DNA of 64,000 nt, from assembly GCA_964442455.1 (NCBI GenBank), contig CAYTZB010000006.1, forward strand, positions 9,532 through 73,531. Reading direction: 5' to 3'. The position numbers were made by a program, and so were the translations under genes. A model generated the notes under the pieces. It made no database searches and was not told the DNA's origin. It saw only the letters and a list, made by a program, of their open reading frames with translations. Positions 4,292 through 24,607 of this stretch are shown here, piece by piece (the first letter of the stretch is position 1; each line of letters starts with the position of its first letter). Source of the stretch: an uncultured Gammaproteobacteria bacterium (lineage in GTDB: Bacteria; Patescibacteriota; Microgenomatia; UBA8517; JACQJR01).

Positions 4292-4438
4292 TATATGTTT
4301 ATTCTCCACAGTTTATTTATTAATCAACAATAATTATTAACAAATAGTTAGGCGTCCTATCCACAACTAAAAATGTGCGTAGATTGCGCTCACTTATCCA
4401 AATATCAACAATACCAACAACAATAACAATTAATATTT
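4292..4438. promoter_or_regulatory. Candidate oriC (dnaA-dnaN spacer) with DnaA-box cluster and AT-rich unwinding region
   Basis: TTCTCCACA (4302-4310), CTATCCACA (4357-4365) and TTATCCAAA (4395-4403) are each one mismatch from TTATCCACA. TGTGGGGATAA spans the dnaA stop (4281-4291). The spacer is very AT-rich. Confidence 0.55.
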
Positions 4439-5536: not shown

Positions 5537-6112
5537 CTAGAATTTTTGGGGATATGAGGTTGAAAATTCTTGTCCTAGCGACGCCTGGAATTGTTCAAAA
5601 CCCATTGGAGTAAAATACCATACCTCAAGTACTGTTCCATCAGTGGGATTTGCAAGGGCGGCCACGCCGCGAGAAGAAAACACATGGAGCGTAAACCCTG
5701 CGGTGGCGTGTGGACCATACAGGAGGGCTTCAGGCGCACCGTACGTATCAAGGTATGATGAGAGTGTTACTTCACTGCTTGTTATCTGTTCTTTAATCAA
5801 TGAGGTTGTTGTTCCGGTAAAAAATACTTCGTTGTTGCGTACTTTGCTTCCTGATGGATATATAAACACGGTAGAGGAATTTTCCGTTCTTGTTTCCCTA
5901 GGTTGACCTAGTTTATGTGCCACCTCTTCTTGTGAAGTTTGACCGGGGGTAATTCCTCTCCATGAGGGAGATTGAGAGATAGGACTGGGGGATGGGGCGA
6001 CTTCTCCACCCTTTTCTTGCGTAAAAAGGAAAATGCCGAGAAGGGCGAATGCGAGGGCAGCAAGAACAATAAAAAGCCAGTGTTTCTTGAAAAAGGAGGT
6101 AATGACTCCCAT
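5537..6112 (-). CDS. Membrane-anchored (N-terminal TM) extracytoplasmic protein, unknown function; first gene of the T4SS-like locus
   Basis: N-terminal hydrophobic helix (WLFIVLAALAFALLGIFLF) followed by a Ser/Pro-rich linker. Its stop and the start of the 6114-8390 gene are 2 bp apart. Confidence 0.45.
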   Translation of the reverse strand: MGVITSFFKKHWLFIVLAALAFALLGIFLFTQEKGGEVAPSPSPISQSPSWRGITPGQTSQEEVAHKLGQPRETRTENSSTVFIYPSGSKVRNNEVFFTGTTTSLIKEQITSSEVTLSSYLDTYGAPEALLYGPHATAGFTLHVFSSRGVAALANPTDGTVLEVWYFTPMGFEQFQASLGQEFSTSYPQKF

Positions 6113-6113
6113 G

Positions 6114-8390
6114 TTAATATTCTACTCCACCAAAAATAGTAGTGCGTGCAAATTGGTAGTGGAGAGGATATTCACTGGGGTAGGTAATAAAACAACCACC
6201 GCATCCACGAAACGCGAGATTCCCCCACACAGGATATATCCCTATCATCTCAGCAAAATCTTCATCAGTAGATTTGCCAAGCGGATAGCTCTTAATAAAC
6301 CCTTCTTGGGCAGCTATTCCTGAATCAATAAACTGTATGTATGCTCTCCCAAATCTGTTTGCATACGCGTGCCCCCCCTCATGCGCGAGGGTATAGGTCG
6401 CGTTCGTAGACCATAAAAGTCCTCGGTTATAAATTTTAATTGTTGAAGAACGTGCTTCAAATTCCCCGCCCCAACTCACATCTTCTCTACTCCGTACTAA
6501 GTGAATTATCGGTCCATTATTTTCTCCACAGAGTGCTTTAATAAATGTAGGAGCGCGCGCAAGATTAAAGATGGCTTCGGTCTCCATTGCTCTCTCATCA
6601 TCTGTCCATGGTCCCTCAAACGTAAAGCAAAAAGTGGGCGGAGAGCCAATTGTGACTGATGCTGCTCCTCTACTCGTTTCCCCTGAAAGGTTTACATCGG
6701 GAACATCGGCGGTGACGGTAACAATGTCGGAGAGGATGCTATCGATAAAGTCGGCAGTTACTTGGATAGTATAGGCGAGTGTGAACGACTCGCCGGGCTG
6801 AAGCTCCTTCGGATAGGAAGGGAGTGTCACATCCAACCCTAGGGATCCTCCGCTTTTTAAATGGGTTGTTTGATTAGTTACCGTAATATTAGTGAGTTTT
6901 TGCTCGGTTGCGGTTACTTTCACTTCAAAGGAAACCTCCCTTGGGAGATCGGTATTGGAGAGGACCGTTGGTGTGGCAGTTTTCTCAACATTAATAAATT
7001 GTGAGTTTTGTTCGGCTAAACCTAGTCCACCTTGTTCAAGGTACGCACCCTGGTGACTTATAGAGGTATTGAAGAAGGTGAGGATTACTGTTAGAAGTAT
7101 TGCAGCAACTGCAACCAACGCCACAACGGTACCTCCTGAGATTCCCACTCCCGCTGCTACTCCTCCAACCGCAGTAGTTCCACCGCCAACCCCTCCTACT
7201 CCAGCGAGTCTTCCTAAAAAACCAAAAGTGCCACGCCCAACACCTCCTAAAGCTCCGAACCCTCCACGCAGTCCTCCGCTCAGCAGTTGTTGCCCTGGAC
7301 CAACTGCCAACTGCGCTGTGGCTCTCCCGACCTGGGGGAACAAGGTTCGTCCCACATAATAGGGGAATTTCCGTGCCCAAATACTTACTTGTGAGATAAT
7401 GTTTTTGCGTCCAGAGATAAGTGTTTGTGCAACTTCTTTGGTGGCGCCAGAGACTGTAGGTTCTTTAGTAGGAGGTGGAAAGAATCGCTCAAATTTAGTA
7501 ATTTGCTGTGTTGCCCTCGAAATAACTACACGGAAAGTTTGTATGCCTTGTTCTTTTACTTCTACCTCGGGTTTTTCTGGTCTTGTCGGTGGTTCTTTTG
7601 AGATAACAACATGACTTACTTGGGTAATGGGCCCCAATTGCGCAAGAAGCGGCAAGATGCGAGGATGGCGTTCAATTTGGCGCAATACGGTTACCTGGTT
7701 GAGTAGGGCAGACACTACTGCCCGCTCACTCAAAGGGGTTGTTTTTTGAAAGCTCTCGACGGCGGCTTCCAGCGTTCCAGACGTAACCCCTATTTGTTCA
7801 AACACCAGAGCATTCGCTGTTTGTGGGGTTTTACCAAATGCTTCTTCACCTAACGCTTGTATGCTGCGCGCTGCTTGAGCGGGAAACGCTGAGACAACGC
7901 CGGAAATTCCTTTTGTAATGGGTGTTGTAGCCTGGATATAAAGCTCTGTAATTCCCTCTTCTGTTGTGGATACTGGGGGTTTCTCGGGTAAGGATGGTGT
8001 TACTCTTGCTGGTCTTGGCATTTCTGGTTGCTGCGCAACTTCGTTTACATACTGTTCTTTGAGTCGCTCTTTGGTTAGCAGTACTCGAATTTTTCTAATG
8101 GTTTCTTCTGTTTGTTCTTTTGCACGAGCACGCGCTCCCGCTACTTCTTGTTTTCGTTCTTCTAATGCTTCAACCAGTTCTTTTAAGTTCGGAGGAATAG
8201 TAAATGCGAGTTCTCCATTTGCAACTTTTTCAAGTACTTTTAATGCTTCTGTGATGTCTTCTTGGTTGGTTACTTGTGTAACAATCCAAAGGAATTCCCC
8301 CCTGGGTATTCCTTGCCATTCAAAGAGGCTCGAGTTAACTTGAAGCGCTTGTGTTCCCGCAATTAAAAACTGGGCAAGTTCTGGATTCAT
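6114..8390 (-). CDS. Bitopic membrane protein: about 400-aa cytoplasmic N-domain, Gly-rich segment, one TM, extracytoplasmic domain with HEGGH zincin-like motif
   Basis: 758 aa. TM helix GGTVVALVAVAAILLTVILTFF preceded by a Gly-rich low-complexity stretch. C-terminal HEGGHAY (HExxH) with downstream acidic residues (DEDFAE). Start overlaps the virB4 stop by 4 bp (ATGA), implying co-translation. Confidence 0.5.
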   Translation of the reverse strand: MNPELAQFLIAGTQALQVNSSLFEWQGIPRGEFLWIVTQVTNQEDITEALKVLEKVANGELAFTIPPNLKELVEALEERKQEVAGARARAKEQTEETIRKIRVLLTKERLKEQYVNEVAQQPEMPRPARVTPSLPEKPPVSTTEEGITELYIQATTPITKGISGVVSAFPAQAARSIQALGEEAFGKTPQTANALVFEQIGVTSGTLEAAVESFQKTTPLSERAVVSALLNQVTVLRQIERHPRILPLLAQLGPITQVSHVVISKEPPTRPEKPEVEVKEQGIQTFRVVISRATQQITKFERFFPPPTKEPTVSGATKEVAQTLISGRKNIISQVSIWARKFPYYVGRTLFPQVGRATAQLAVGPGQQLLSGGLRGGFGALGGVGRGTFGFLGRLAGVGGVGGGTTAVGGVAAGVGISGGTVVALVAVAAILLTVILTFFNTSISHQGAYLEQGGLGLAEQNSQFINVEKTATPTVLSNTDLPREVSFEVKVTATEQKLTNITVTNQTTHLKSGGSLGLDVTLPSYPKELQPGESFTLAYTIQVTADFIDSILSDIVTVTADVPDVNLSGETSRGAASVTIGSPPTFCFTFEGPWTDDERAMETEAIFNLARAPTFIKALCGENNGPIIHLVRSREDVSWGGEFEARSSTIKIYNRGLLWSTNATYTLAHEGGHAYANRFGRAYIQFIDSGIAAQEGFIKSYPLGKSTDEDFAEMIGIYPVWGNLAFRGCGGCFITYPSEYPLHYQFARTTIFGGVEY

Positions 8391-10912
8391 GGTTCCTCGG
8401 GTCTAGGGTTTCCGGTTTCGGTTTTTAGTTGTCGGTTTTCTGGTAAAGTTTCTGAGGGGCTTACACCTGGTACCTGATACCCTACTTGCGCAGGCAGGCC
8501 GACGCCTGATACCTGGGTTTGTGCCTGTTCTCTTGCTAAAACCTCTTCAGGTTTGGTTGTTACAAGTCCGTGTTCTTTATCTGAAGCGACGACTCGCATT
8601 GCGACATGGTGTGGCCCGGCAAAGAAAATTCCCTCCCCAATGTCTGAAGCAAGTATCAGTTGTTTTTCTCCTTCTGATAGGTGGAATACTTCGCCTACTC
8701 GGTCAAGCGCGCTCGGTGACTGTTTCATGAGGATACGAAGTGCTGCATTATTGACAATTGCGCGACCGATATCTTGAGAGAGAAAGTCTTCAACATCTTG
8801 AGTGATGGTTGAGAGTCCCAACCAATACTTTCTCGCGCGCTTGGCAATTGACCACAAAAAGAGGGCTGAGTCGGGGAAGCGCATGAGATGCCATGCCTCA
8901 TCCACTATAAGCAGTCGCTTTTTAATATCGCTCCTTATCCTTGTCCAAATAAAGTCAAGAACGATAAACATTGCAATGGGTCGGAGCGCTTCCTCTAAAT
9001 CACGAACTGAGAAAACAGTGAAGGGGCTTGTGATATCAACCGTGGTTGGTTGGTCAAATATACCCATAAAACTTCCCTTCACAAACTTCTCAATTCGGGC
9101 AGCAAGATTTGCGGCTTCCGGCTCTTCCATGCCAATGAATGCTTTATAAAGATCTTCCATAAGAGGAGGTTCTTTCGTGTGAGTTTCTGGGTCTGGGGTA
9201 ATGCCCTTTGCTTTATAGGTAAGTATCAGCGCTCGGTCTAATAGTGCTTCCTCGGTAGGAGCGAGCGCGCCCATAATGACCTTAAAGAGAGAGTGGAGTG
9301 AAAGCAGTTTGAGTGCCAGTTGATTTTCTCCAGGAGTTTGTACTGTTTGTGCCCCGAGCGCACTCATATCAAAGGGATTAATTTTACTTGGTGAACCAAA
9401 AGAGAAAGAAATAAACTGTCCGCCAACTGCGCCGCAGAGTGCTTTGTATTCGCTTTCTGGGTCAATAATAATAATTTCCGCTCCCAACATTAAGTAGCGC
9501 AGTGCTTCCAATTTAATAAAGTAGGATTTCCCACTCCCTGAAGTGCCAAAAATTGTAGCGTTGGGGTTCTCAAGCTTGAACCTGTCGAAGATAATGAGCG
9601 AGCCGTTATCCTCGTTAATACCATACATCACTCCTTCTTCTTGGGAAAGTTCTGCGGAGGTGAAGGGAAAGGTGGTGGCAAGAGAGCTTGTATCCATATT
9701 GCGGGTAATAGTAAGGGGATCAAACCCCAAGGGTAAGGTTGCAACGAGTCCGTCTTCTTGAGAAAGGCTTGCGGTCCTGACAGTGATAAGAAGAGCCCCA
9801 AGTGTTGATTGGACTTGTTTGGTAACGTTTTCGAGTTCTTCCAACGACGAGGCGGGAATGGTGATATAGAAGGCGAACTGAAAAAAACGTTCGGCGCCTT
9901 TCACTAATTGCTCCTGAAGTGAAAGTGCGTCTTCAAGTTTTGCTTGCGTGGAAGGATTTACGACGCGACCTCGTTGAACATCGGTTGAGATTTCCGCTTC
10001 CATCTCCGCAATTTTGCGCCGCAGGTCATCTAACACCGATTTCCCCTCAACAGGATAGATAAAGAGGGAAAGTGTTAGGGTATGGTCGAAATTGATAATG
10101 GGGTCAAGCCACCCCGCTGAGACAAAGCGGGGGTAACCGGAAACAAACAGTGTCCGATATAAGGTTCCATCTACAGTGAGGTGAGAGAAGTCGACCTCCA
10201 TTTGCGCAGGTGCGATAATGTCAATGACGCGTTCTCCCGCCGGAACGAGTGTTTCTACCTCGGATAACGTGGTTACTTTATATCTCGAAAGGAGTTTGTC
10301 TCGCTCGGCAGGATTATAAAGTTCAAGAAAAAGATCAATGAGTTCGTTGGTCGTCAATTGCTTAAGCTTTAAACCCAACCGTCCTGCTTGTCGAAGTATG
10401 TGGTCCCGTTTAGGATAGAGTGTTGTTTTCGCTTTTTTTATGATGTACGAGCGTGAATAGGGAAGTTGCTTTGACTTGCGTATGATGCCGCTCACCGCCT
10501 GTTTTACTCCTAACTCAAGCGACGAGAAGGGAATGACAATAAAGAATCGTTTGGACAGCACTCCCTTTTTTTTCACTGTTGAGGTGACAAATGCCTCATA
10601 TTCTTGCATCATCGCCAATATTCGAGGGTTTGTTTGCCGCGTGCGCGCTTCTTCTAGAAATGCAAGATAGCGCCCTATATCCTTTTTCTCGGAGCGCACC
10701 AGAATTTGTGCAGAAAATGAGAGAGAGTTTAGGAAAGCCGCGTACGCAAAGAGAATTGCTTCCTGCTCGCGTTCTGAAAGTAGAGAGAAGTTAAGCGAGG
10801 AGGACGCGAGAACGAGTGCCGCACCGCCATTTTTGAGAAGCACAATATCCTCAACAATGTCAGCAATAGGGAGGTGGTCTTGGGTTGTGGCAGTAATAGG
10901 TTGTATTTGCAT
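8387..10912 (-). CDS. virB4: Type IV secretion ATPase VirB4/TrbE/TraC family
   Basis: 841 aa. Walker A GTSGSGKSYF, Walker B LLIVDEAW. Size and domain order are typical of VirB4. Confidence 0.85.
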   Translation of the reverse strand: MQIQPITATTQDHLPIADIVEDIVLLKNGGAALVLASSSLNFSLLSEREQEAILFAYAAFLNSLSFSAQILVRSEKKDIGRYLAFLEEARTRQTNPRILAMMQEYEAFVTSTVKKKGVLSKRFFIVIPFSSLELGVKQAVSGIIRKSKQLPYSRSYIIKKAKTTLYPKRDHILRQAGRLGLKLKQLTTNELIDLFLELYNPAERDKLLSRYKVTTLSEVETLVPAGERVIDIIAPAQMEVDFSHLTVDGTLYRTLFVSGYPRFVSAGWLDPIINFDHTLTLSLFIYPVEGKSVLDDLRRKIAEMEAEISTDVQRGRVVNPSTQAKLEDALSLQEQLVKGAERFFQFAFYITIPASSLEELENVTKQVQSTLGALLITVRTASLSQEDGLVATLPLGFDPLTITRNMDTSSLATTFPFTSAELSQEEGVMYGINEDNGSLIIFDRFKLENPNATIFGTSGSGKSYFIKLEALRYLMLGAEIIIIDPESEYKALCGAVGGQFISFSFGSPSKINPFDMSALGAQTVQTPGENQLALKLLSLHSLFKVIMGALAPTEEALLDRALILTYKAKGITPDPETHTKEPPLMEDLYKAFIGMEEPEAANLAARIEKFVKGSFMGIFDQPTTVDITSPFTVFSVRDLEEALRPIAMFIVLDFIWTRIRSDIKKRLLIVDEAWHLMRFPDSALFLWSIAKRARKYWLGLSTITQDVEDFLSQDIGRAIVNNAALRILMKQSPSALDRVGEVFHLSEGEKQLILASDIGEGIFFAGPHHVAMRVVASDKEHGLVTTKPEEVLAREQAQTQVSGVGLPAQVGYQVPGVSPSETLPENRQLKTETGNPRPEEP

Positions 10913-10925
10913 ACTATCTGCTGTG

Positions 10926-12002
10926 CTATTGACTGGTCTCTACTGTCGGCTGAGTTCCTACTATACCCTGTAAACTGCCGACCGTTGACCCAGCGGCGCC
11001 TTTTGCCCTAATTTCAATTGGTGGGACAATTTCATTTTTTGCCATAAATTGGATAGGCTCAAATATTAATCCCTCCTTATCGGTAATAATCTCATACGTG
11101 CCCATGGGTAGGGGAGTTGCGGTTAAGAAATGACCAACTTTATTAGTGCGCAGTGCCCGCACCGGTCTTCCTTCACTATCTTTAATCTCGAGAATTGCTG
11201 CCTCAACCGTATTTCCCTCTGTATCAAGTACTTGTCCTACTACTACATTGGGGATTCTTGGCGCAGCAGGCGGTGCTGCTGAAATCTCAAATCGTGGTGC
11301 GTTTAAACGAGGGCGACCAGGACCTCTTTTCTGAGCGAAGATGGGGGTAACAGGGGTGGCAGGAGCGGGTGTAACCCCGGTAGTTGGAGGAGGCGTGGGG
11401 TAAAACAGTTGTGTAGGTGTTACCTGAGGGATGAGTTGGGGAGGTATCTCTTGCTCCACAATAATGCGCGGCCGCGCATTTGGTTGGGGTGTGGTTGGTT
11501 GTGCGCTCGGTTGCCCAGCTGTCTTTGTTAAATGAAAGAGAGAAAGCATCTTTTGAAAAAACGAGCGCTCTTCTTGTTCAAAAATTATTACTGCTTGCTC
11601 TTCCCCCTGGGCGGCACGAGCAAGGTACGCTTCTGCTGCTCCCTCTCCCTGCGGGGTGGCAGCGACCTCCGCTGCTCCCATTGGCGTTCCTTCTGGTGCA
11701 AAGAATTCCCGTGTCTTCCCCTGCTGCCATACGTACTTTGTCGGCGAATAAATAGCATGCAGAAATGCGAGAAACCACATAGAGAGCGGTCGTTCTTCAA
11801 TGGGAAGAAAGGCAAGTGCGACGCCCGCAAGCCCTGAAAACAGAATAAATGGCCACTTGATAATTCCAGGAAGCGGTGAAGCATAGAACAACAGTCCCAC
11901 GAGTGCTCCACCTGCAACCTGAAAGAACTGCCGCAACGTCATATCCCCTACGAGGTGGAATTCGTAGCTGGCGATATTTTGTGGCACGGGATGCTGTTGC
12001 AT
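10926..12002 (-). CDS. VirB3/PrgI-like two-TM N-terminus fused to a Pro-rich linker and C-terminal prealbumin/carboxypeptidase-regulatory-like beta-sandwich
   Basis: N-terminal roughly 100 aa with two hydrophobic helices, directly upstream of virB4 (VirB3 position). Pro-rich PTTPQPNARP...PPTTGVTPAPATP linker. C-terminal TDKEG..PMGTYEI resembles CarboxypepD_reg folds. Confidence 0.4.
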   Translation of the reverse strand: MQQHPVPQNIASYEFHLVGDMTLRQFFQVAGGALVGLLFYASPLPGIIKWPFILFSGLAGVALAFLPIEERPLSMWFLAFLHAIYSPTKYVWQQGKTREFFAPEGTPMGAAEVAATPQGEGAAEAYLARAAQGEEQAVIIFEQEERSFFQKMLSLFHLTKTAGQPSAQPTTPQPNARPRIIVEQEIPPQLIPQVTPTQLFYPTPPPTTGVTPAPATPVTPIFAQKRGPGRPRLNAPRFEISAAPPAAPRIPNVVVGQVLDTEGNTVEAAILEIKDSEGRPVRALRTNKVGHFLTATPLPMGTYEIITDKEGLIFEPIQFMAKNEIVPPIEIRAKGAAGSTVGSLQGIVGTQPTVETSQ

Positions 12003-12161
12003 AAATTTAAAATTTCTAATTTCTAATTATTCTAATTTCTAAAGAAGTCCCAATTTGTTAATTTCTTAAAATCTTAAAAGGATCCCTAAGAGTTTAGTTG
12101 TATTATTTAGGTCAATTAGAGCAATTAGGTTAATTAGGTCAATTTATTTATAACTTATCAT

Positions 12162-12785
12162 ATGAAACACAAGTTGCAAACCTGTCCTGCCATAGCCTTG
12201 GTAAAGGTGGGTTTTATATGGTTTCACACTATGCGGGCTGCATTATACAATAAAAGGGTGGTAGAGTCATTCCTTATACTTGCTCTTATGCTCCTTGCCC
12301 TCTTTTTTCTCCTTCCTTACCTTCGGAGTGGAGCAAAGTTTGGCGCACCGTTTGTACCGATGGAGCGGGAGGTGGTTAGTCGAGTGATGAAGTTGGCAGA
12401 AGTTGGTCCGGGAAAGACATTTTATGATTTAGGGTCAGGAGACGGGAGGCTGGTCATTGCGGCAGCGTTGCGTGGTGCGCGCGCAATTGGTGTTGAAATA
12501 GACGGGATCCGAGTTTTATATTCTCGGTTTTGGTTGAAAATTTTAGGACTACACAGCGCCAAAATTGTCAAAGGGAATTTGTTTGAGCAAGATTTGCAAG
12601 ATGCCGATATTGTAAGTTTGTACTTACTTGAAGGGACAAATGAGAAGTTAAAACCAAAGTTAGAGAAAGAATTAAAGCCTGGGGCACTTGTTGTTGCGAC
12701 AGGATTTAAAATCCCTGGTTGGAAGCCAATTAAGGTGGATCCCCGCGGACCGGTATATGGACCTATCTATCTATATAGAAGATAA
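12162..12785 (+). CDS. Class I SAM-dependent methyltransferase with N-terminal membrane anchor
   Basis: Motif I DLGSGDGRL, motif post-I IGVEID, and a hydrophobic N-terminal helix. Confidence 0.6.
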   Translation: MKHKLQTCPAIALVKVGFIWFHTMRAALYNKRVVESFLILALMLLALFFLLPYLRSGAKFGAPFVPMEREVVSRVMKLAEVGPGKTFYDLGSGDGRLVIAAALRGARAIGVEIDGIRVLYSRFWLKILGLHSAKIVKGNLFEQDLQDADIVSLYLLEGTNEKLKPKLEKELKPGALVVATGFKIPGWKPIKVDPRGPVYGPIYLYRR

Positions 12786-12908
12786 TTTTCAATTCTTAAT
12801 TTACGATTTTCAATCAAATTACAATGAGCCGATTTCCAAACAGATACGATTTAGAAGAGCGTACAGTAATTTTTCAAAAGATATCATCTCCTGGCTCAGA
12901 ACCGGAAA

Positions 12909-13670
12909 TTAACCCCTGACTAAAAGCTGGTTCCAAAAACTGGGTCTTTGGGGCACAGATGGAGAAGGTGGCAAAACCGGAGTTTCTTCTCCGCGGGCAA
13001 TTCTATCCCTTACCGCCTCTGCCTCCGGAACCCATTCGCTAAAAGGCCACCCTTCATTAAAACAATGATAATGCGAATCTAGGTAGGATGAGCTAATTAC
13101 TCTTTTTAAAACATCTGGATTCGTATACTCACTTTCAAAGAGGATGACAGGGTTAACCCGGGATTCAAGAGGGTTAGGGACAATTATTAATTTTTCTTCA
13201 TTATTTCCAACTATCTCTATTTGGTTGAATTCATATCCAGCTGGGAAACTAGGCCAGTCAACAGCGACCCGGCTAGAACCTTCGACACCTGGGCTGTAAT
13301 GAATTTTCCAGACAAGCGCTACACTTGCAACAACCATTTCTTTCTTGCCTAGAAATTGTTGACTATAAATATGACTTATGTATTGTCTAACAATGGTCCT
13401 GGCACTATAGAAATTACTCTCGCTAAGACTGGTGGTATTCGGAAAGGCATATTTAACGGTTGGTTTTCTCCAAAGCACATGAGCCCCTTCTAGCTGTTGT
13501 TCATCTATTATACTTTGTAGATATTCAGGGATTTTTAGTTCCTCAAGTAAGTGTCTATTTTCTTGCGCTTCCCTAGCCATTTTTTCTTGCTCGAGACGTT
13601 GGGCTTCTTCTGCTTTCAATCTTGCTGCTTCAGCCTCCTGTTCTCGTCTTTCTTTTTCTCTTTGAATCAT
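12909..13670 (-). CDS. Hypothetical protein with highly charged coiled-coil N-terminus
   Basis: 253-aa ORF. N-terminal EKERREQEAEAARLKAEEAQRLEQEKMAREAQE. No recognisable catalytic motif. Confidence 0.45.
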   Translation of the reverse strand: MIQREKERREQEAEAARLKAEEAQRLEQEKMAREAQENRHLLEELKIPEYLQSIIDEQQLEGAHVLWRKPTVKYAFPNTTSLSESNFYSARTIVRQYISHIYSQQFLGKKEMVVASVALVWKIHYSPGVEGSSRVAVDWPSFPAGYEFNQIEIVGNNEEKLIIVPNPLESRVNPVILFESEYTNPDVLKRVISSSYLDSHYHCFNEGWPFSEWVPEAEAVRDRIARGEETPVLPPSPSVPQRPSFWNQLLVRG

Positions 13671-13745
13671 ACGACCCAGATTTTACTCGCTTATAATTTT
13701 TAAGTCAAATTTTTGTAAGAAAAATGGTATAATGAGACAAATTAT

Positions 13746-16151: not shown

Positions 16152-16168
16152 CTTACTCCCTTAATAGC

Positions 16169-17590: not shown

Positions 17591-17625
17591 AGATACTTAA
17601 GCTATAACTTATTTTATGAAATTTT

Positions 17626-19200
17626 TCAAGGGCTATTGTAATTTTCCCAAACGAATTCGCAATAAGTTCTATTACCTAATCTTGGGAAGCTGGTTTGGCA
17701 TTCTCCATAATAAGATTCAGCAGCTCTGGATACTTCCTCTTGAGTCCACTCTGCACCTATTGCTCCTGAGCTTGCCCCTAGCTTTTTACTTGCAGCATAT
17801 ACAGAGTCCTTTACATTACAAACATTTGATGTTCTATTTTCTCCTGCTGCCTCATTTACTGCATTGGCATAAGAAGACCAGACATCAGGCATGGGTTGGC
17901 CAGTATAATTTCCACAGCTTGCTGCAATACCATCATTGAGGAACTGCATTGGCCCTCGTGCTCCACAGCCGTTGGATTCACAATTGATTGGATCTTGACC
18001 TCCAGGTACAGAGTAGGTGGATATTTGGCCGTCAGAAAAACTCCACATGTGTCCTCCCTCAATCCACGCAACTGCTGCCAAAACACCCGCAGGAACATTA
18101 AAGGCGACAGAAGCTTGTCTTAATTGGGCTTCAAGTTGGGGAGATAGAGGATTACCGGTTAATTTAAAAATGCCTGTTCCTCCACTGGGGGGTAGAGGGG
18201 GTGTTTCGGGGATTGGGCGGAGAGGTTGTAATTCGGCAGGGTAAAGAGATTGTTGGAGGAGGACATAGCCCTTTCTCGCTCCAGCTACACCCAAGAAATT
18301 GAGTTCTTTTGTGGTTGAGGAACCATCGACAGCATAGGGAGTTTCTTCTTGTTCCCCTTCGCCCTTAGGGCAAATTTCTTCCGGACAAAAACTACGCAAA
18401 AATCCGGTTTCTTCTTTTGAGGCCTGCGAAAGAAATGCCCGCTCTCCCGGTAGAAATTTTTGTGGTTTAACCGTTACCGCAATTGTCGCTGATGCATTGA
18501 GAAGTTTACTCCACAGTCCGGTAAAAAAATCGACAATATTTCCTATAACTCCTGCCAGCGAGATGGTTGTGGTGTTTTGGGAAGGCGCGGGAACTATTTG
18601 TTTGCCCACTTGGCCCGTCAATTCCGGACAGTCAGGTAGTTGTTTATTCCCCTCCTCGTCCAGAGGAAGCGTTGGTTGAGGTGCGCTAAAATTGGTGCGC
18701 GAGGAGAAACCCGGAACTGCACTGGCTTGATTAAGCTTTGTCGCTCCCAAAAGTTTTGTCCAATAAGAGGGTGTCCTGACATCACTTGCGCCTTTCCCCT
18801 CTATTCTACCTGTCACTGAAGCACCTCCTGCATCAATATCGCAGACAGGATGAAATACTTTTCCGGAGAGTGTTGCTTCTGGGAGAGATAGGTTTTTAAG
18901 AAGTCCTTCGGGAAGGAGGTTGGGGAGGGCGTTCGTACTTACTTGCATTTCGCGAGTGAGGTTGGGAAATTTAAATTCATTTTGCACGACTCCTACATCA
19001 ATACCCTGCCCGCTTACATCTACTGCCCCACCAGTTTTGGTGACTTCCCGCGTCACATCAATGTCTTCTCCATAAGAGGGGTGTACACTGGTGTCGAGTG
19101 GTTCGGGAGTCGGAGTGGGCTCTTGGGCAAAGGCAGGAGCGGGATAAACAATAAACAATAAACAATAAACAAAAAATAGCGATAAGGGCAGGCGTAGCAT
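17626..19200 (-). CDS. Secreted protein with C-terminal lytic transglycosylase (SLT/VirB1-like) domain
   Basis: Signal peptide MLRLPLSLFFVYCLLFIVYPAPAFA. C-terminal AWIEGGHMW (catalytic Glu region), GARGPMQF (GxxGxMQ) and SYANAVNEAAG (AYNxG-like) motifs. Confidence 0.55.
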   Translation of the reverse strand: MLRLPLSLFFVYCLLFIVYPAPAFAQEPTPTPEPLDTSVHPSYGEDIDVTREVTKTGGAVDVSGQGIDVGVVQNEFKFPNLTREMQVSTNALPNLLPEGLLKNLSLPEATLSGKVFHPVCDIDAGGASVTGRIEGKGASDVRTPSYWTKLLGATKLNQASAVPGFSSRTNFSAPQPTLPLDEEGNKQLPDCPELTGQVGKQIVPAPSQNTTTISLAGVIGNIVDFFTGLWSKLLNASATIAVTVKPQKFLPGERAFLSQASKEETGFLRSFCPEEICPKGEGEQEETPYAVDGSSTTKELNFLGVAGARKGYVLLQQSLYPAELQPLRPIPETPPLPPSGGTGIFKLTGNPLSPQLEAQLRQASVAFNVPAGVLAAVAWIEGGHMWSFSDGQISTYSVPGGQDPINCESNGCGARGPMQFLNDGIAASCGNYTGQPMPDVWSSYANAVNEAAGENRTSNVCNVKDSVYAASKKLGASSGAIGAEWTQEEVSRAAESYYGECQTSFPRLGNRTYCEFVWENYNSP

Positions 19201-19203
19201 AAG

Positions 19204-19608
19204 CTATTGAGTTACTCGAAATATTGTTACATCAACGCCGGTAAAGACGCTCACAAAACGCAGAATTAAAAACGCGGCGACAACAACGACAAAACCAATG
19301 AGCGCATAAGTTAAGGTTTGACGGGCTCCCTGGACTGCCTGTTGGTCGCCGCCGGCAGTCAAGTATTTAAATCCTCCAATAACAAGTATGACAAACAGTG
19401 CAATTCCCGCGGCCGCAAGGGAAACTGCAACAATATTAAAGAAAATAACTTCTAACCCTTTTAGCGTAGCAACGCCATCAGAAACAGCACCCGGAACATC
19501 TTCAAATTTTTTGGTTTGCGCAAGAACCGGCGAAGCCCCCAATAGACCAATAGCCAAATAACCCAATAGCCAAATAATTCTCATAGCTTCAGTGTAGCAC
19601 GAGTTCAT
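19204..19608 (-). CDS. VirB2/TrbC-like pilin paralog 1
   Basis: Signal/TM plus a second TM hairpin. Conserved GGFKYLTAGGDQQAVQGAR motif shared with six neighbours. Confidence 0.65.
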   Translation of the reverse strand: MNSCYTEAMRIIWLLGYLAIGLLGASPVLAQTKKFEDVPGAVSDGVATLKGLEVIFFNIVAVSLAAAGIALFVILVIGGFKYLTAGGDQQAVQGARQTLTYALIGFVVVVAAFLILRFVSVFTGVDVTIFRVTQ

Positions 19609-19643
19609 TTATTGAAGCAAGGGATGTTCAGCCAGTCGGAGAG

Positions 19644-20036
19644 TTAGGGTTGGAATTTTGGAATAGTGAGCTGGAGGATGTCAATACCAAAGAGTACGTT
19701 AACAAGCTGAATAATTGCCCAAGCCGCAAAGACAATTACAAGTCCGACAAGTGCTGCAGTAATTTGGCTTCTTGCTCCTTCAGTTGCTGTTTTATCGCCA
19801 CCGGACAAAATCCAGCGGATACCACCAATAACCAAGATAAAAAAGAATATCAGTGCCGCAATGACTAGGACTAAACGAATGAGGCCTGAAACAATGCTTG
19901 GGACAGTTAAGTTACCCAATGCTTGGAACTGTCCGCCTGGTTTGATGTTAATCACGTCTCCCTGTGCCAAAACCGGGAGTGCGGTTAATAAAAGAGCCCC
20001 ACCGCTTGCTGCAATTCCCTGGATAATTCGCTTCAT
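19644..20036 (-). CDS. VirB2/TrbC-like pilin paralog 2
   Basis: IGGIRWILSGGDKTATEGARSQIT motif. Two hydrophobic segments. Confidence 0.65.
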   Translation of the reverse strand: MKRIIQGIAASGGALLLTALPVLAQGDVINIKPGGQFQALGNLTVPSIVSGLIRLVLVIAALIFFFILVIGGIRWILSGGDKTATEGARSQITAALVGLVIVFAAWAIIQLVNVLFGIDILQLTIPKFQP

Positions 20037-20044
20037 TTGTATAA

Positions 20045-20380
20045 TTATCTCAATATTAATTTCCCAATGTCAAGAGTGAGAATGTTTACGCCAAAAAGTC
20101 CCTCAACAAGGGTTGCAAGTGCAAAAGCTGCAAAGACTATAAAAAGACCAATCAGGGCATTGGTTATGCGGGAACGAGCCGCTTCTACTTGTGTTTTGTC
20201 CCCTCCGGCTGTCATCCAGGAGATTCCACCAAGAAGTAAAACAAATAAAAACACTACGCCTGCAACTACAAGCACAAGAGTAATAAGCATTGGCAAAAAT
20301 TGTGCAGCAAATGCTTGGCCTGTTAAGTCTTTTATTCTCGGAGAAAGTATTGGATTTTCTATTACTTGTGCTAACTTCAT
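20045..20380 (-). CDS. VirB2/TrbC-like pilin paralog 3
   Basis: LLGGISWMTAGGDKTQVEAARSRIT. Start overlaps the next paralog's stop (ATGA). Confidence 0.65.
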   Translation of the reverse strand: MKLAQVIENPILSPRIKDLTGQAFAAQFLPMLITLVLVVAGVVFLFVLLLGGISWMTAGGDKTQVEAARSRITNALIGLFIVFAAFALATLVEGLFGVNILTLDIGKLILR

Positions 20381-20739
20381 GGCGAAATTAAAGGTAGAAC
20401 CTTTTCGATATTGAATATTGTTTCTATTCCAAGAAGCGCAGTTATAAGTCGGATGAAAAAGATTGCCAGTGCCACAATTGCAAGTCCAACAACAGCACTG
20501 GTTAATTTTCCTCTCGCTCCCTCTAACTTTGTTTTATCTCCTCCCGCAGCAAGCCACTGAAAACCAGCAAGTAGAACTTGGAAGGTAAACCATATACCTG
20601 CAACAATAGTCATAAAACCGATAATATTAGAAATTAACCGTGCAAATGTTGCAGGAGCATTTGTCGGGTCTCCAAGTGGACCAATTCCCCTAAATTCTTT
20701 ACCCAGAGGAATTTCTCTAAGTTGTGCTAAAAAAATCAT
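20377..20739 (-). CDS. VirB2/TrbC-like pilin paralog 4
   Basis: LAGFQWLAAGGDKTKLEGARGKLT. Confidence 0.65.
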   Translation of the reverse strand: MIFLAQLREIPLGKEFRGIGPLGDPTNAPATFARLISNIIGFMTIVAGIWFTFQVLLAGFQWLAAGGDKTKLEGARGKLTSAVVGLAIVALAIFFIRLITALLGIETIFNIEKVLPLISP

Positions 20740-20749
20740 AATAATATAT

Positions 20750-21088
20750 TCATTGTGGGCCGAAAATTCTTGGTTTTATAAGTATGGTTGGATCTTTAAA
20801 TATAATTTGGCCAAAGATAGCAGCTAGTACAAAAGCCCCTGCGATAAACAAAAGCCCAATCAGAGATTGCCAAATTCGTGCCCACGCTTTTTGCATGTTT
20901 TCTGGATTTCCGCCGGCAGAAATAAATTGAAAACCGGCAATAACAATATTAAAAAGCGCATACACCCCACCCACAACAATCAAAAGAAGGAGTATTGCGT
21001 TTAAGAATGTTACTAGCCCACCGCCAGTTAGTGGGCCGTAACGTTCAACTCCTGGTGGTGGTGCAACTTTACCAAAAATTTGCAGCAT
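20750..21088 (-). CDS. VirB2/TrbC-like pilin paralog 5 (divergent motif)
   Basis: IAGFQFISAGGNPENMQKAWARIW. Stop shares a base with the start of the next gene. Confidence 0.6.
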   Translation of the reverse strand: MLQIFGKVAPPPGVERYGPLTGGGLVTFLNAILLLLIVVGGVYALFNIVIAGFQFISAGGNPENMQKAWARIWQSLIGLLFIAGAFVLAAIFGQIIFKDPTILIKPRIFGPQ

Positions 21089-21405
21089 TATAATCCTCTT
21101 CCTCCTCCGAGAATATTTATTCCCGTTATTGCTTCAACTGCTTGAATTATCCAGTAACTGGCGAAAATAATCAAGAAACCTATAATTCCCGCAGTAATTG
21201 CCTGCCTTCCCTGGCCTGTTTTTTGCTGATCTCCACTACCTGCACCAATAATTATTCCCAATCCTCCAAAGACAATTAAAAAGAGAACTACAACTCCAGC
21301 AATAATATAGGCATTTGAAAGAATGACAGAAACGAGAGAACCAAAGTCCGCAAAAGGAGTTTTAAATACTTCTTCGCCAATTTTTACTTGGGCTATTTCT
21401 CTCAT
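21088..21405 (-). CDS. VirB2/TrbC-like pilin paralog 6 (start placed at the internal Met MREIAQ...)
   Basis: The ORF-track version (to 21498) overlaps the upstream paralog by 97 bp. The Met at 21405 gives an ATGA overlap with 21402-21761. Motif GIIIGAGSGDQQKTGQGRQAIT. Confidence 0.55.
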   Translation of the reverse strand: MREIAQVKIGEEVFKTPFADFGSLVSVILSNAYIIAGVVVLFLIVFGGLGIIIGAGSGDQQKTGQGRQAITAGIIGFLIIFASYWIIQAVEAITGINILGGGRGL

Positions 21406-21761
21406 TCTTCTCCCACGGAGGATGGTGGTCCTCCAAATTGAAATATATCTTGGATTTCCTTTATGCCGAATGCTACCCCTACCAGTTGTACGAGCCAATA
21501 TGCAACGAAGATAATTACAAATCCGACAATTGCGTTGGTAATTTTAGCTCGTGCCTCTTTCAGTACTCCCGGATCGCCTCCTGAAGTCATGAGTTGAAAT
21601 CCACCATAGAGGAGATAGAGGAGGAGCGCAAGACCCGCGATGACGAAAATATATTGGGTGGCAAGGAAAAGTACATCTCCTACTCCACCAGTAAGAGGGA
21701 AGCGAAATCCCGGTAGGGCATCTTGCAATTGGTTGAAATCAATAGCTTGTGCAAGCTGCAT
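21402..21761 (-). CDS. VirB2/TrbC-like pilin paralog 7
   Basis: LYGGFQLMTSGGDPGVLKEARAKIT. Confidence 0.65.
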   Translation of the reverse strand: MQLAQAIDFNQLQDALPGFRFPLTGGVGDVLFLATQYIFVIAGLALLLYLLYGGFQLMTSGGDPGVLKEARAKITNAIVGFVIIFVAYWLVQLVGVAFGIKEIQDIFQFGGPPSSVGEE

Positions 21762-21764
21762 ACG

Positions 21765-22820
21765 TTAGCCCCCAAATCCTGGTAGTTGTAAAATATCTAC
21801 CCCTATTAATCTTAACAAAAAGACAGAGAAAATGAGAAACAATAGACCACCAATTGCAGCGGTTAGCTGTTCCCGTCCCGCTTTTAGGCGTTCAGGATTG
21901 CCCGCTGAGGTCATAATTTGAAACCCGGACCACAGGATTAAAAGAAATGCAATTCCTCCCCCAATCCCTATTGCCCATCCCAAAAACCATTTTACGAATT
22001 CGGTGGTGTTCTCTACCGGGATACATCCGAACGCAGTGTAAATTCCCCTAGTCCCATTTGGACAGGCGGTAATTTGTGGTCCCCTTCCTGGCTCTCCTAT
22101 TGGACCTGACCCCGGTTGAATTCTTGGAGTGCCGGGTGGTCCTACCTTAAGTGGTATAATGCCGCATTCTTGGTATCTTTCAACATCTCTTATATCGTAT
22201 CCAGGGAGCGGAGCTCTTACATTTAATCCTACCCATATTTGGTAATTATCACTTGCAGGGGTAATTTTCCCAATAGTCACACTGAAGTTTCCACTATTAT
22301 CCGGTCTTGCGGCAAATATTCTCGTTTGCGGTCCTTCAAGTACCACCACATTGTTTGCGTTCACCGGTACACCTGTTCCGCTCACTGCGATATCAGTAGA
22401 AGTGTCTATTTCGTTTGGACTTATACTCAAGGTACACACACTCGTTCTACTCACAGTATAGGTATTTTGACACTCGAGACCACGCGGACCATGCAAGCTT
22501 ATCTTATGGGTACCCGTGGCAAATACTTCCCTATTTTTGAATGTGTATTCAATAGGTCCCCCGTTTGAGGTAATCTTGGGAGACCAGATATTGGTAGGAT
22601 GGAGAGGATTGTTTGGGATATCAACCTCAATTTGGTATCGTTCACCTGTATTGGTTGGCCCCATTCTGAACGTTACTTCGTCGTGTGTAGTTAAGAGTGG
22701 CTTTGGCTCGTACTCGAAAGTGGGACAGAGGGAAATTTGAGCATTAGCTAAATTTATTTTTGGGAGAACCAATGCAAAAATTCCTAACAAAAAAAGAGCA
22801 GAGAGGAAAGGTCTTTTCAT
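21765..22820 (-). CDS. Secreted 351-aa protein: N-terminal beta-rich domain fused to a C-terminal VirB2-like pilin module (candidate tip/minor pilin)
   Basis: Signal peptide. C-terminal FLLILWSGFQIMTSAGNPERLKAGREQLTAAIGGLLFLIF matches the motif of the seven pilins. First gene of the pilin operon. Confidence 0.55.
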   Translation of the reverse strand: MKRPFLSALFLLGIFALVLPKINLANAQISLCPTFEYEPKPLLTTHDEVTFRMGPTNTGERYQIEVDIPNNPLHPTNIWSPKITSNGGPIEYTFKNREVFATGTHKISLHGPRGLECQNTYTVSRTSVCTLSISPNEIDTSTDIAVSGTGVPVNANNVVVLEGPQTRIFAARPDNSGNFSVTIGKITPASDNYQIWVGLNVRAPLPGYDIRDVERYQECGIIPLKVGPPGTPRIQPGSGPIGEPGRGPQITACPNGTRGIYTAFGCIPVENTTEFVKWFLGWAIGIGGGIAFLLILWSGFQIMTSAGNPERLKAGREQLTAAIGGLLFLIFSVFLLRLIGVDILQLPGFGG

Positions 22821-22930
22821 TTAGTTAAGTGTAGCATGGGGAAGCTGCAAGAGGCAACTTTATGAATTTTGATTAGAAATCAGATATTAGGAATTAGGTT
22901 AATTTTCCAAGGTTGTTATAATAGAGGAGC

Positions 22931-24607
22931 ATGAGTTTGCGCCACTTAATTTTTTTGTTTTTTATTCCGCTTACAATAGTTTTTGCTAGTAGCGCAGTCG
23001 CTTCGCATTGTGGCAGTGATTTGCAGTGCCAGATTGATGAGATTCAAAAAGAAATTGATACACTAAAACCTGCTCATGAACGGAATGAACAAGAGTTAGT
23101 AGATTTACGAAAACAGATAGCGAGTATAAAGGCGCGCATTAACGGGATTAATAGCGAACTTTTACAACTTGAGAAAAGTATTGCACAACGGGAAGAGGAT
23201 TTGGGAGTACAGCAGGAATTACTAGAAGTCCGGGTACGCGCGCTCTACATCAGAAGTCGGCTCTATTCGCCTCTCATGGTATTCCTTGCCTCAACTTCTG
23301 CTTCTCAATTTACAAGAGAGCTGGCGCTTAGGCAACAGGTAACCAATGAGGATAGACGTATTATCGATGAACTCTCAGCAGAACTTACAAAACTCAATGA
23401 GGACAAAAAGACACTCCAAACCTCGCGGGCAGGTTTGGCAAGGCTCCAGCAGCAACTTGATGAGCGGGCGGGATTTTTGGCAAAAGAAGTAGAAAAGGTA
23501 GAGAGTTATCTTTCAAGTTTAACGGCAAAACAGCAAGAACTCGAAGCCTTAAAAGCCGGAGGATTTCAAACTTCAGTCGGTGATACCCCTCCCACACTTG
23601 AACCATGCTCCGGTCCACCCGGCACATCTGCCTTCTGTGATCCAGGTTTTAAACCAGCTTTTGGCGCGTTTTCATTTGGCGCTCCCCACAGAACAGGCAT
23701 GAGCCAATTTGGTGCTTACGGAAGGAGCAAACAAGGGCAGTCGGCAGAGCAAATACTTGCTGCGTACTATCAGGGAGCAAGCTTGCAAAAAGACTATCCG
23801 TCTCCCGACACGATTGGTGTTAATGGATACGGAAGGATTCCTTTTGAAGAGAACTACCTTTTGGGAATTTATGAGGTTCCTGAAAAGTGGGGAGATAATG
23901 GGGGTTTTGAGGCGCTTAAAGCTCAGGCAATTGCAGCGCGAAGTTTTGCGCTTGCAGTTACGAGTGGCGGTGCTGGCTCAATTTGTACGACTGAAGCTTG
24001 TCAAGTCTACAAACCCCAGCTCAAGAGTGGGAAGTGGGCAGAAGCAGTTCGGGCAACGCGAGGATGGGTATTGATCCGCGACGGTGCGCCAGCCAAGGCA
24101 TACTATGCCTCAACATCAGGTGGCTATACAATTTCACAGTGGGGATGGGGTGGTATTAAAGATACCGCAGGTGAGTGGCCAGACACTGCCTATGAGAAGA
24201 GTTCTGGCTCACCTTGGTTTTACAAAGGATGGTACAGAACACGGAGTGGTGCCACATGCGGAAGGAGCAATCCATGGCTTACGTCAGAAGAAATGGCTGA
24301 TATTCTGAACGCGTGGCACGTACTTTACAAAGGAGGTGGTGATGTCTCTCGGATTAGTCCTGTGACGACAAGTTGTTTCTCGGGAAATCCCTACTCTGTT
24401 TCTGAACTTGCCGGAATTGGCGGATACACGAGTGCGTCTTCGGCAGCGGTTATCTACAGCAATAGTGGTTCAACGCAATCCGTGAGTTTTTCAACCAATA
24501 AAGGAACATTAACTTTGTCTGGGGAAGAGTTTAAAAAAGCATTTAACCTGCGCGCCCCGGGTTATATAGGTCTTAAAAGTAGCTTGTTTAATATAGTTAA
24601 GCTATAA
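22931..24607 (+). CDS. Coiled-coil plus SpoIID/LytB-domain protein (peptidoglycan lytic transglycosylase/amidase enhancer)
   Basis: N-terminal TM and long coiled coil. SpoIID signature motifs LKAQAIAARSFA, TTEACQVY and YYASTSGGYT. Confidence 0.65.
   Translation: MSLRHLIFLFFIPLTIVFASSAVASHCGSDLQCQIDEIQKEIDTLKPAHERNEQELVDLRKQIASIKARINGINSELLQLEKSIAQREEDLGVQQELLEVRVRALYIRSRLYSPLMVFLASTSASQFTRELALRQQVTNEDRRIIDELSAELTKLNEDKKTLQTSRAGLARLQQQLDERAGFLAKEVEKVESYLSSLTAKQQELEALKAGGFQTSVGDTPPTLEPCSGPPGTSAFCDPGFKPAFGAFSFGAPHRTGMSQFGAYGRSKQGQSAEQILAAYYQGASLQKDYPSPDTIGVNGYGRIPFEENYLLGIYEVPEKWGDNGGFEALKAQAIAARSFALAVTSGGAGSICTTEACQVYKPQLKSGKWAEAVRATRGWVLIRDGAPAKAYYASTSGGYTISQWGWGGIKDTAGEWPDTAYEKSSGSPWFYKGWYRTRSGATCGRSNPWLTSEEMADILNAWHVLYKGGGDVSRISPVTTSCFSGNPYSVSELAGIGGYTSASSAAVIYSNSGSTQSVSFSTNKGTLTLSGEEFKKAFNLRAPGYIGLKSSLFNIVKL

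Follow-up and report, generated by a model that had tools for sequence, protein, structure and literature searches.

Chromosomal type IV secretion systems (T4SSs) of the Patescibacteria have been described mainly in two studies. In Southlakia epibionticum, transposon sequencing (Tn-seq) showed that the T4SS cluster SEML1_0006–0019 is essential; the cluster contains pilins and is without a coupling protein or relaxase (Wang et al., 2023; PMC10633639). The order of SEML1_0004–0019 is dnaA, dnaN, recF, an exported protein, a lysozyme/CHAP protein and a protein of 1113 amino acids (aa) with a DD-peptidase fold, which lies directly downstream of virB4, followed by a 293-aa (TrsD-like) protein, PrgI, a 998-aa protein, an NTF2-like protein, a TrbL/VirB6-like protein and six pilins. 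A survey of 3,035 genomes catalogued the system in 2,417 Patescibacteria genomes and placed their VirB4 proteins in a monophyletic, class-congruent clade nested in the MPF-FATA (Quinonero-Coronel et al., 2025; PMC12102498). According to this survey, TrsD, PrgI, VirB6 and VirB2 homologues lie near virB4, relaxases are nearly absent, dnaA/dnaN are enriched near virB4 in Paceibacteria and Microgenomatia, and pilin arrays of 2–11 genes with ~25% mean identity occur chiefly in Microgenomatia and Saccharimonadia. A 2025 review lists the Patescibacteria systems as a new T4SS type, and the proposals in the literature for their function are effector export, import of nucleic acids or nutrients, and adhesion. 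Here we analysed a T4SS block of ~19 kb that adjoins dnaA–dnaN in a 64-kb stretch of contig CAYTZB010000006.1 (hereinafter the window, the whole stretch of DNA that was analysed). This block is very probably a vertically inherited, chromosomal Patescibacteria T4SS of Microgenomatia, derived from the conjugation apparatus of monoderms (MPF-FATA), not mobile and serving host interaction, with a hypervariable island within it.

Conserved gene order of the T4SS block beside dnaA and dnaN

The same DNA had been interpreted before from its letters and predicted open reading frames (ORFs), and this sequence-only reading had recognized a T4SS-like block of ~19 kb beside dnaA–dnaN, which we confirmed gene by gene. 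The block adjoins dnaA–dnaN and the cluster of DnaA-box-like sites between them, and consists of two minus-strand operons. Operon 1, convergent with dnaN, encodes the PrgI/VirB3-like protein, VirB4, a 758-aa and a 191-aa protein, while operon 2 encodes a 351-aa pilin fusion, seven small pilins, a 524-aa secreted and a 473-aa polytopic protein. The gap between the operons holds a methyltransferase gene, the gene of a 253-aa soluble protein and a plus-strand gene for an 801-aa protein. The features of the region are as follows.

2891–4291, plus strand: dnaA (Pfam Bac_DnaA, 5.7e-63, plus the C- and N-terminal DnaA domains)
4283–4402, no strand: cluster of four DnaA-box-like sites in the AT-rich dnaA–dnaN spacer, putative oriC
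4439–5536, plus strand: dnaN (three DNA_pol3_beta domains, Pfam)
5537–6112, minus strand: 191-aa bitopic or exported protein (p191) with an N-terminal hydrophobic segment, last gene of the virB4 operon
6114–8390, minus strand: 758-aa bitopic HExxH protein (p758) with an ATGA overlap, one transmembrane (TM) segment and the motif HEGGH
8387–10912, minus strand: full-length VirB4 ATPase with a fused TrsD-like N-domain (NF045971, PF19044, NF041427)
10926–12002, minus strand: PrgI/VirB3-like membrane protein joined by a Pro-rich linker to a CarboxypepD_reg (prealbumin-like) domain (PF12666, PF13620)
12162–12785, plus strand: 207-aa membrane-anchored class I S-adenosylmethionine (SAM) methyltransferase (weak DOT1, PrmA and Methyltransf_31 matches)
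12909–13670, minus strand: 253-aa soluble protein (p253) with a coiled-coil start, no TM segment and no family match
13746–16151, plus strand: 801-aa soluble protein (p801), divergently transcribed (small family, N-terminal motif, AlphaFold2 model)
16169–17590, minus strand: 473-aa polytopic protein (p473) with a signal peptide and at least six TM segments (hydropathy scan), candidate VirB6 analogue
17626–19200, minus strand: 524-aa secreted protein (p524), signal peptide read from the sequence
19204–21761, minus strand: seven VirB2-like pilin genes (PF18895, 2e-9 to 1e-4) at 19204–19608, 19644–20036, 20045–20380, 20377–20739, 20750–21088, 21088–21405 and 21402–21761
21765–22820, minus strand: 351-aa secreted pilin fusion (signal peptide, beta-rich N-domains, Pro/Gly linker, C-terminal pilin module)
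22931–24607, plus strand: 558-aa secreted coiled-coil and SpoIID protein, divergent from the pilin operon (PF08486, 5e-13; weak CC_PcsB)

The ATPase matched the NCBIfam model NF045971, 'VirB4-like conjugal transfer ATPase, CD1110 family', with 414.5 bits (cut-off 325) and PF19044 at 3.7e-29. These matches confirm its assignment to the VirB4 family, and the possibility that it is an FtsK or terminase protein was thereby ruled out. Its closest homologues, 48–94% identical, come largely from Microgenomates, Woesebacteria and other metagenome-assembled genomes (MAGs) of the candidate phyla radiation, while the identity of plasmid homologues is 26–37% (34–37% for the best). A search for genes of mobility, covering the ORFs of at least 140 aa across the whole window and the shorter ORFs of the locus, revealed no relaxase, VirD4, VirB9/10/11 or integrase, in agreement with the sequence-only reading.

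Related loci were collected by a genome scan with one genome per species, resulting in 80 loci whose VirB4 is 48–94% identical to that of the window. Where informative, their record titles name Woesebacteria, Microgenomates, Gottesmanbacteria, Shapirobacteria and similar MAGs, some of them mislabelled 'uncultured Gammaproteobacteria'. In 60 of the 80 loci both dnaA and dnaN lie within 10 kb of virB4, and the convergent virB4-to-dnaN layout was seen in 39 of the 59 relatives showing both genes. As far as the flanks permit, the relatives share the order pilin array, large secreted protein, polytopic protein, large ORF on the opposite strand, PrgI and VirB4, sometimes followed by a peptidase and a homologue of the 191-aa protein, then by dnaN, dnaA and rnpA. 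Three features that had been singled out as special recur in relatives, namely the metallopeptidase coupled to VirB4, the fusion protein with a pilin module and the large protein encoded divergently. Since the gene order and the position at dnaA/dnaN are shared among relatives, we consider the block a conserved chromosomal locus and not an integrative conjugative element (ICE).

Comparison with described T4SSs

The window locus is collinear with that of S. epibionticum. The likeness to this and other Patescibacteria systems includes the chromosomal position beside dnaA–dnaN, an MPF-FATA VirB4, PrgI, a polytopic protein at the VirB6 position, a metallopeptidase after virB4, an exported protein at the dnaN end, divergent PF18895 pilins and the lack of a relaxase or coupling protein nearby. 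The differences concern individual components: the TrsD-like N-domain is fused to VirB4 here, but S. epibionticum and most relatives have a gene of its own for it; the peptidase slot holds an HExxH zincin in contrast to the DD-peptidase/LAS fold; the VirB6 candidate has 473 aa and is undetectable by sequence, whereas its counterpart has 1088 aa; and an NTF2/VirB8-like gene is present in S. epibionticum, while none was recognized here. A p801-family gene and a hypervariable island are present in the window, and neither was found in the accessible parts of the two published accounts. These accounts supersede the earlier statement that the architecture is uncharacterized. Consequently, nothing is new at the system level, and what appears new is the p801 family, its slot and motif, and the hypervariable island.

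The T4SSs of the MPF-FATA class in Gram-positive bacteria (CTn2 of the CD1110 type, Prg of pCF10, Con of ICEBs1) resemble the locus in the VirB4 family, the adjacent PrgI/VirB3, the wall hydrolases in the operon and the lack of an outer-membrane core. Unlike them, the window has no context of relaxase, type IV coupling protein (T4CP) and oriT, contains VirB2-like pilins and is fixed at oriC. The best VirB4 of the plasmid database belongs to Pontibacillus sp. ALD_SL1 (NZ_CP062975, an 898-kb replicon, 350336–361354), with 34% identity over both pieces in the database search and 37% for the ATPase part alone. Here two proteins homologous to the pilins of the window (profile E 5e-17 and 5e-14; 'Mbov_0395 family pilin-like' in the annotation of one) and a 779-aa protein at the VirB6 position, inspected only at its signal-peptide-like start, follow each other in the same order as in the window, then come a PrgI-sized protein, a TrsD-like gene, VirB4 and an M23 DD-metalloendopeptidase, and the annotation shows neither a relaxase nor a T4CP within 12 kb. 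Unlike the window locus, this cluster belongs to a Bacillota host, does not lie beside dnaA and has no p801-family match by profile. VirB2-like pilins in a monoderm T4SS are therefore not confined to Patescibacteria. The ComB system of Helicobacter pylori is similar in concept only, as a T4SS without relaxase and coupling protein put to a non-conjugative use, but it is a diderm VirB2-4/6-10 system with other components and no pilin array.

The p801 family and its slot

A protein identical to p801 is deposited at NCBI as a hypothetical protein of 'Candidatus Microgenomates bacterium'. The sequence-only reading had called p801 an orphan, and a word-indexed search found four relatives only; however, when 1.84 billion cluster representatives were searched exhaustively with HMMER, 27 were detected at E ≤ 1e-3, thus p801 belongs to a very small family and is not an orphan in the strict sense. 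With a 25-sequence alignment, AlphaFold2 gave a model with a predicted local distance difference test (pLDDT) score of 81.4 and a predicted template modelling (pTM) score of 0.75 (pLDDT was only 39 with a 2-sequence alignment), and no structural relative was found for it. Residues 1–105 are predicted to be disordered, the body to be mostly helical with a small beta subdomain at 212–293, and the modelled fold appears to be novel. Pfam recognized no domain in p801. A motif of the form M[ST]xERPx-EGvxPxEQxQVxxA stands ahead of the divergent body in ~19 of 25 members, further conserved patches lie at 373–381, 514–553 and 604–618, and residues 187–274 gave a weak winged-helix-like match to ArsR (E 0.23) and low-confidence Foldseek matches to the N-domain of GyrA/ParC (TM-score ~0.1), although this segment is absent in ~40% of the family.

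Wherever the neighbours could be read (the window and the loci L081, L082, L084, L085 and L086), the p801 family occupies the same slot in the same orientation: its gene is read from the opposite strand and has the PrgI side to one side of it and the VirB6-like gene to the other. A soluble ORF of 379–1365 aa fills this slot in each of the 23 loci in which both landmarks occur, and its length is at least 528 aa in 22 of them. The 29 slot proteins of at least 500 aa, which include p801 and P0002–P0004, possess neither a TM segment nor a signal peptide and contain ~30% charged residues. BLAST sees nearly no similarity among the slot proteins, and BLASTP of p801 against its positional equivalents in L016 and L023 detected none. 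The 25-sequence p801 profile recovered the slot proteins of L013 (2.5e-30), L012, L003, L024 and L018 and the full-length P0003 and P0004, while iterated profiles joined only some of the slot proteins, at least eight of which could be linked into one family. Since the profile links proteins that BLAST cannot, at least part of the slot proteins belong to one family that evolves extremely fast. In one relative, citrate-lyase or succinyl-CoA-ligase-like genes lie between PrgI and the p801 homologue.

A hypervariable island around p801

The window was compared with L081, a metagenomic contig of a closely related strain. DNA identity between them is 87–92% over the aligned core genes and 83% over the methyltransferase gene, and it is lost at 7415–8356, 12791–13722 and 13979–17549. 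At the protein level, VirB4 (93%), PrgI (89%), p524 (87%), p191 (87%) and the four comparable pilins (82–91%) are well conserved, whereas identity falls to 36% in p473, 25% in p801 and 20% in p253 (the last figure is a global identity), and it is 24–50% in the cytoplasmic third of p758. The first 50 residues of p801 are 96% identical in the two strains. A conserved piece of 258 bp, comprising the p253/p801 intergenic region and ~78 first codons of p801, lies between two divergent stretches of the island. Counterparts of p253 with 278–340 aa are found in L084–L086.

The more distant locus L082, whose VirB4 is 77% identical, carries a full-length p801-type allele with 38% identity, and because of this the allele set of L081 appears to be imported and deeply divergent rather than the result of local decay. 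From these alignments we read the island as a probable recombinational replacement of a module under diversifying selection. Our best guess is that the island (p253, p801 and the VirB6-like protein) supplies a strain-specific substrate/effector or specificity module. It can be proposed tentatively, as a possibility rather than an expectation, that these three proteins form a Microgenomatia-specific recombining specificity cassette, in which p801, with its new fold and N-terminal docking motif, would be the substrate/effector or adaptor deciding the host; a part of the cytoplasmic domain of p758 may belong to the cassette, too. If this is true, p801 would be the first substrate candidate put forward for a T4SS of Patescibacteria.

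The base composition of the region differs from that of its neighbours. GC content is 0.40 at 14001–16000 versus 0.45–0.50 in the T4SS core, and the coding strand is purine-biased here (GC skew +0.32 to +0.34, AT skew +0.12 to +0.17). The lower GC content and the skew of the p801 region are consistent with a separate evolutionary history of the island. In addition, small genes are inserted in or beside the T4SS of relatives, namely those of 23S_rRNA_IVP four-helix-bundle proteins, PDDEXK_3 nucleases and a HEPN/nucleotidyltransferase pair, at the following positions.

L082: 5707–6126, 9559–9951, 15204–15647 and 19133–19832
L083: 4511–4735
L086: 12447–12818

Components of the predicted machine

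VirB4 is encoded by a single 841-aa ORF in the window and in ~9 of the 80 relatives, while in 59–70 of them a ~220-aa TrsD-like N-domain is encoded by a separate gene overlapping the start of a ~640-aa ATPase gene. Residues 8–64 of the fused protein match TrsD (NF041427) at 1.3e-5, and its N-terminus is homologous to the separate ~210–270-aa gene of relatives and Pontibacillus. Judged from these alignments, the 'TrsD' gene of the 2025 survey looks like the split-off N-domain of VirB4. The VirB3-like protein proposed by the sequence-only reading was recovered by PF12666 at 1.2e-5, with 26.1 bits, slightly under the gathering score of 27. It carries a CarboxypepD_reg domain (PF13620, 6.6e-5), and this PrgI fusion lies directly upstream of virB4 in 72 of the 80 related loci.

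The start ATG of p758 overlaps the stop codon of virB4 (ATGA), as could be read directly in the sequence. The protein has a ~420-aa cytoplasmic N-domain, a TM segment at 422–440, an Ig-like domain and, on the outside of the cell, the zincin domain with HExxH, and it gave a weak DUF7507 match in Pfam. Word-indexed searches found 2 homologues with the zincin protein and 1 further with its C-terminal part. Although p758 homologues share only 19–31% identity, except two close relatives with 63–67%, HExxH (HEGGH here) and a downstream E[DA]FAE are kept in 11 of 14 of them, which supports the membrane zincin at the level of motifs. Curated peptidase families gave sub-threshold matches only (Peptidase_Mx1 0.043, TIGR04549 0.016), and the profile of the p758 family yielded coiled-coil noise (ClpC M-domain) and a zinc metallohydrolase lipoprotein at E ~1 against the PDB. 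In L021 and L045, judged by motif, and in L084 (not part of the 14-homologue alignment), judged by Pfam, an M23 (LytM) domain fills the zincin position, and the same slot downstream of virB4 contains a DD-peptidase fold in S. epibionticum and an M23 DD-metalloendopeptidase in Pontibacillus. As wall-directed metallopeptidase domains are swapped at one position, the zincin would act on peptidoglycan, and p758 is likely the cell-wall metallopeptidase of the T4SS.

Eight ORFs contain the PF18895 T4SS_pilin module, as the sequence-only reading had counted; five score over the gathering threshold and three under it, although these align with the others. The seven small pilins have a common TM1-(A/S)GGD-TM2 layout and 19–37% identity to the first pilin, and the ORF listed as a 136-aa pilin probably starts at the internal ATG 21405. 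In the 351-aa fusion PF18895 covers residues 279–337, and weak matches to NF045849 (Mbov_0395 pilin-like) and Big_6 were also obtained. L082 has a 240-aa pilin-module protein, 58% identical to the fusion over the C-terminal part, L029 contains a short stretch similar to the fusion, and a 333-aa pilin-module protein of L086 was matched to it by position and pilin domain alone. The fusion may be a minor or tip pilin displaying a binding domain.

The polytopic p473 had been taken for a VirB6/TrbL protein, an identity that profile searches did not uphold. Members of its family lie between the pilin side and PrgI in 23 of the 80 loci and share conserved motifs across 21 sequences. Because the 2025 survey reports VirB6 to be scarce in Microgenomatia (PMC12102498), the p473 family is, by topology and position, a reasonable candidate for this component.

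Motifs readable as 'AWIEGG … GPMQF' occur in the C-terminal 190 aa of p524, which may be SLT-like. No match was found for p524 in the PDB, and BLASTP against its positional equivalents in L016 and L023 revealed no similarity; the C-domain was found in L081 and in none of the other relatives. The SpoIID assignment (5e-13) of the protein divergent from the pilin operon held, but a SpoIID protein lies near the T4SS in just one further locus, L029, and it is uncertain whether it belongs to the system. The single hydrophobic segment of p191 spans residues 13–31, and Pfam and NCBIfam scans gave no family match for this protein. Its homologue stands beside dnaN in 9 of the 80 related loci, a position equal to that of the exported SEML1_0005 of S. 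epibionticum. Only the nearest relatives, L001, L081, L068 and L082, carry the methyltransferase gene at the same place, and in L082 it is known by precomputed annotation (weak PrmA match).

Putative origin and flanking regions

DnaA boxes were searched with the pattern TTATCCACA, tolerating at most one mismatch. Four DnaA-box-like sites were found inside 120 bp of the dnaA–dnaN spacer and a perfect box at 2803, upstream of dnaA. GC content is 0.34 in 4001–5000 and the cumulative GC skew has its minimum near 5 kb. Taken together, the box cluster at 4283–4402 probably marks the replication origin. The stop codon of dnaN at 5536 directly abuts that of the convergent 191-aa ORF (5537) without any spacer, and the end of dnaN is 2.85 kb from virB4. 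Both T4SS operons (5537–12002 and 16169–22820) lie right of the putative origin and are read from the minus strand, and they would therefore be oriented head-on to replication; the large ORFs of the remaining 40 kb are mostly on the plus strand. Scanning the locus for promoters and terminators revealed nothing over the background.

The left flank of the block contains jag/khpB, yidC, yidD and rnpA, while the right flank consists of genes for a bPH and an NHL protein, smpB, tmRNA, tRNAs, a ComF-like gene, dnaG and rpoD. Beyond rpoD, genes of glycolysis and the pentose-phosphate pathway follow, and the rest of the window is housekeeping. Rfam (133.9 bits) and ARAGORN agree on the tmRNA at 27557–27917; the tag peptide given by the latter, ASICIAFSCGALWV, is hydrophobic and Cys-rich, which is odd for a degradation tag, and it may be mis-framed. 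A tRNA-Asn gene lies at 35707–35780, after which GC content falls to 0.34–0.41 over ~8 kb, and the ORFs 35831–36613, 36954–38009, 39567–40991, 44302–45117, 45939–46928 and 47430–48374 have no Pfam match. The stretch after tRNA-Asn (35707–48400) may be a genomic island.

Discussion

On the analogy of Gram-positive T4SSs (VirB4/PrgJ, VirB3/PrgI, VirB6/PrgH and the hydrolases PrgK and CwlT) and the genetics of S. epibionticum, the VirB4 hexamer would dock at the membrane via the PrgI/VirB3-like and the polytopic VirB6-like channel protein and would power the assembly of the channel formed with them. The wall hydrolases, that is, the HExxH protein, the 524-aa protein and perhaps the SpoIID protein, would open the peptidoglycan, and a pilus or conduit reaching the host cell would be built from the eight VirB2-like pilins, of which one bears a large extracellular domain. 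Such a system would serve host interaction, by macromolecule transfer or attachment, and not conjugation.

An ICE or its remnant, present beside oriC by chance, is very improbable. The VirB4 family is otherwise typical of conjugative elements of Firmicutes, and the 12–16 kb region is lower in GC and mosaic between strains; but no relaxase, T4CP, integrase, flanking tRNA or repeat was found, core genes stand at both ends of the block (rnpA, dnaA and dnaN at one, smpB, tmRNA, dnaG and rpoD at the other), the site at dnaA/dnaN is the same in 60 of 80 species-level relatives, and the published VirB4 clade is monophyletic and class-congruent (PMC12102498). The core flanks, the conserved site and the absence of mobility genes among the scanned ORFs led us to reject this explanation, and the proposal of the sequence-only reading, a relaxase-less locus of a small-genome episymbiotic lineage, capable of forming a pilus, rather than a conjugative element, was sustained by the core flanks and the conserved chromosomal position. 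The DNA uptake or host attachment proposed by the sequence-only reading would be one possible function among several. ComB-like import, by which the DNA or RNA of the host would be taken up as a source of nucleotides, is unlikely, though less so than the other alternatives. Nucleotide acquisition by T4SS is proposed in reviews, a preprint from 2026 reports that a cultivated relative feeds on host RNA and has T4SS-like tubes, and the window itself lacks a relaxase and coupling protein and has a ComF-like gene (27965–28642, identified only via a double zinc ribbon match); the winged-helix-like match of p801 could also be listed here, but its segment is missing in ~40% of the family. Furthermore, neither a nuclease nor a component binding DNA could be identified among the genes of the locus, and according to the literature the T4SS of S. 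epibionticum is essential while its ComEC is dispensable for growth.

That the VirB4 machine merely assembles pilins into an adhesive pilus and moves no substrate seems rather improbable. Eight diversified pilins, one bearing a large extracellular domain, would suit it, and their diversity can be compared with what the literature discusses as antigenic or host-range variation; on the other hand, type IV pili are reported to provide adhesion and motility in these bacteria already, and the conserved soluble cytoplasmic p801 and p253 inside the cluster would be hard to explain. We hold it similarly improbable that p801 has nothing to do with the T4SS and is a fast-evolving housekeeping or selfish gene at a permissive intergenic site. 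Its opposite strand, strong variation and lack of a recognizable domain fit such a gene, as do the selfish-looking PDDEXK_3, HEPN/nucleotidyltransferase and 23S_rRNA_IVP genes inserted into the loci of relatives; nevertheless, a soluble ORF of at least 379 aa stands in the same slot and orientation in 23 of 23 loci with both landmarks, profiles link at least eight slot proteins, and the six readable family members all have the PrgI side to one side of them and the VirB6-like gene to the other.

Several points weigh against our interpretation of the block as a host-interaction T4SS with a specificity island. No VirB8-like (NTF2) protein was recognized in the locus, p473 (with Pfam run on all 21 members) had no Pfam, NCBIfam, PDB-profile or plasmid tblastn match resembling VirB6, and the VirB1/SLT identity suggested earlier for p524 was not confirmed, as SLT_2 matched at only E 0.032. 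In many genomes VirD4 homologues are distant from virB4 according to the survey (PMC12102498), thus the coupling protein may sit elsewhere here as well. The function demonstrated in the literature for Patescibacteria T4SSs is essentiality in one Saccharibacterium only. The island was delimited by the comparison of one close strain pair, and the effector or specificity role of p801 is deduced from its location, solubility and variability only, which would be equally compatible with a structural part in the cytoplasm.

For the biology of the group, the p473 family offers a candidate for the 'missing' VirB6 of Microgenomatia, and the swapping of zincin and M23 domains downstream of virB4 argues for a peptidoglycan-directed slot. 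For the T4SS of Patescibacteria, which one cultured species needs and for which no substrate is known, the p801 family is a concrete candidate in the largest uncultured class: its members were encountered in T4SS loci only, share a conserved motif at the N-terminus and show replacement of alleles between near-identical strains.

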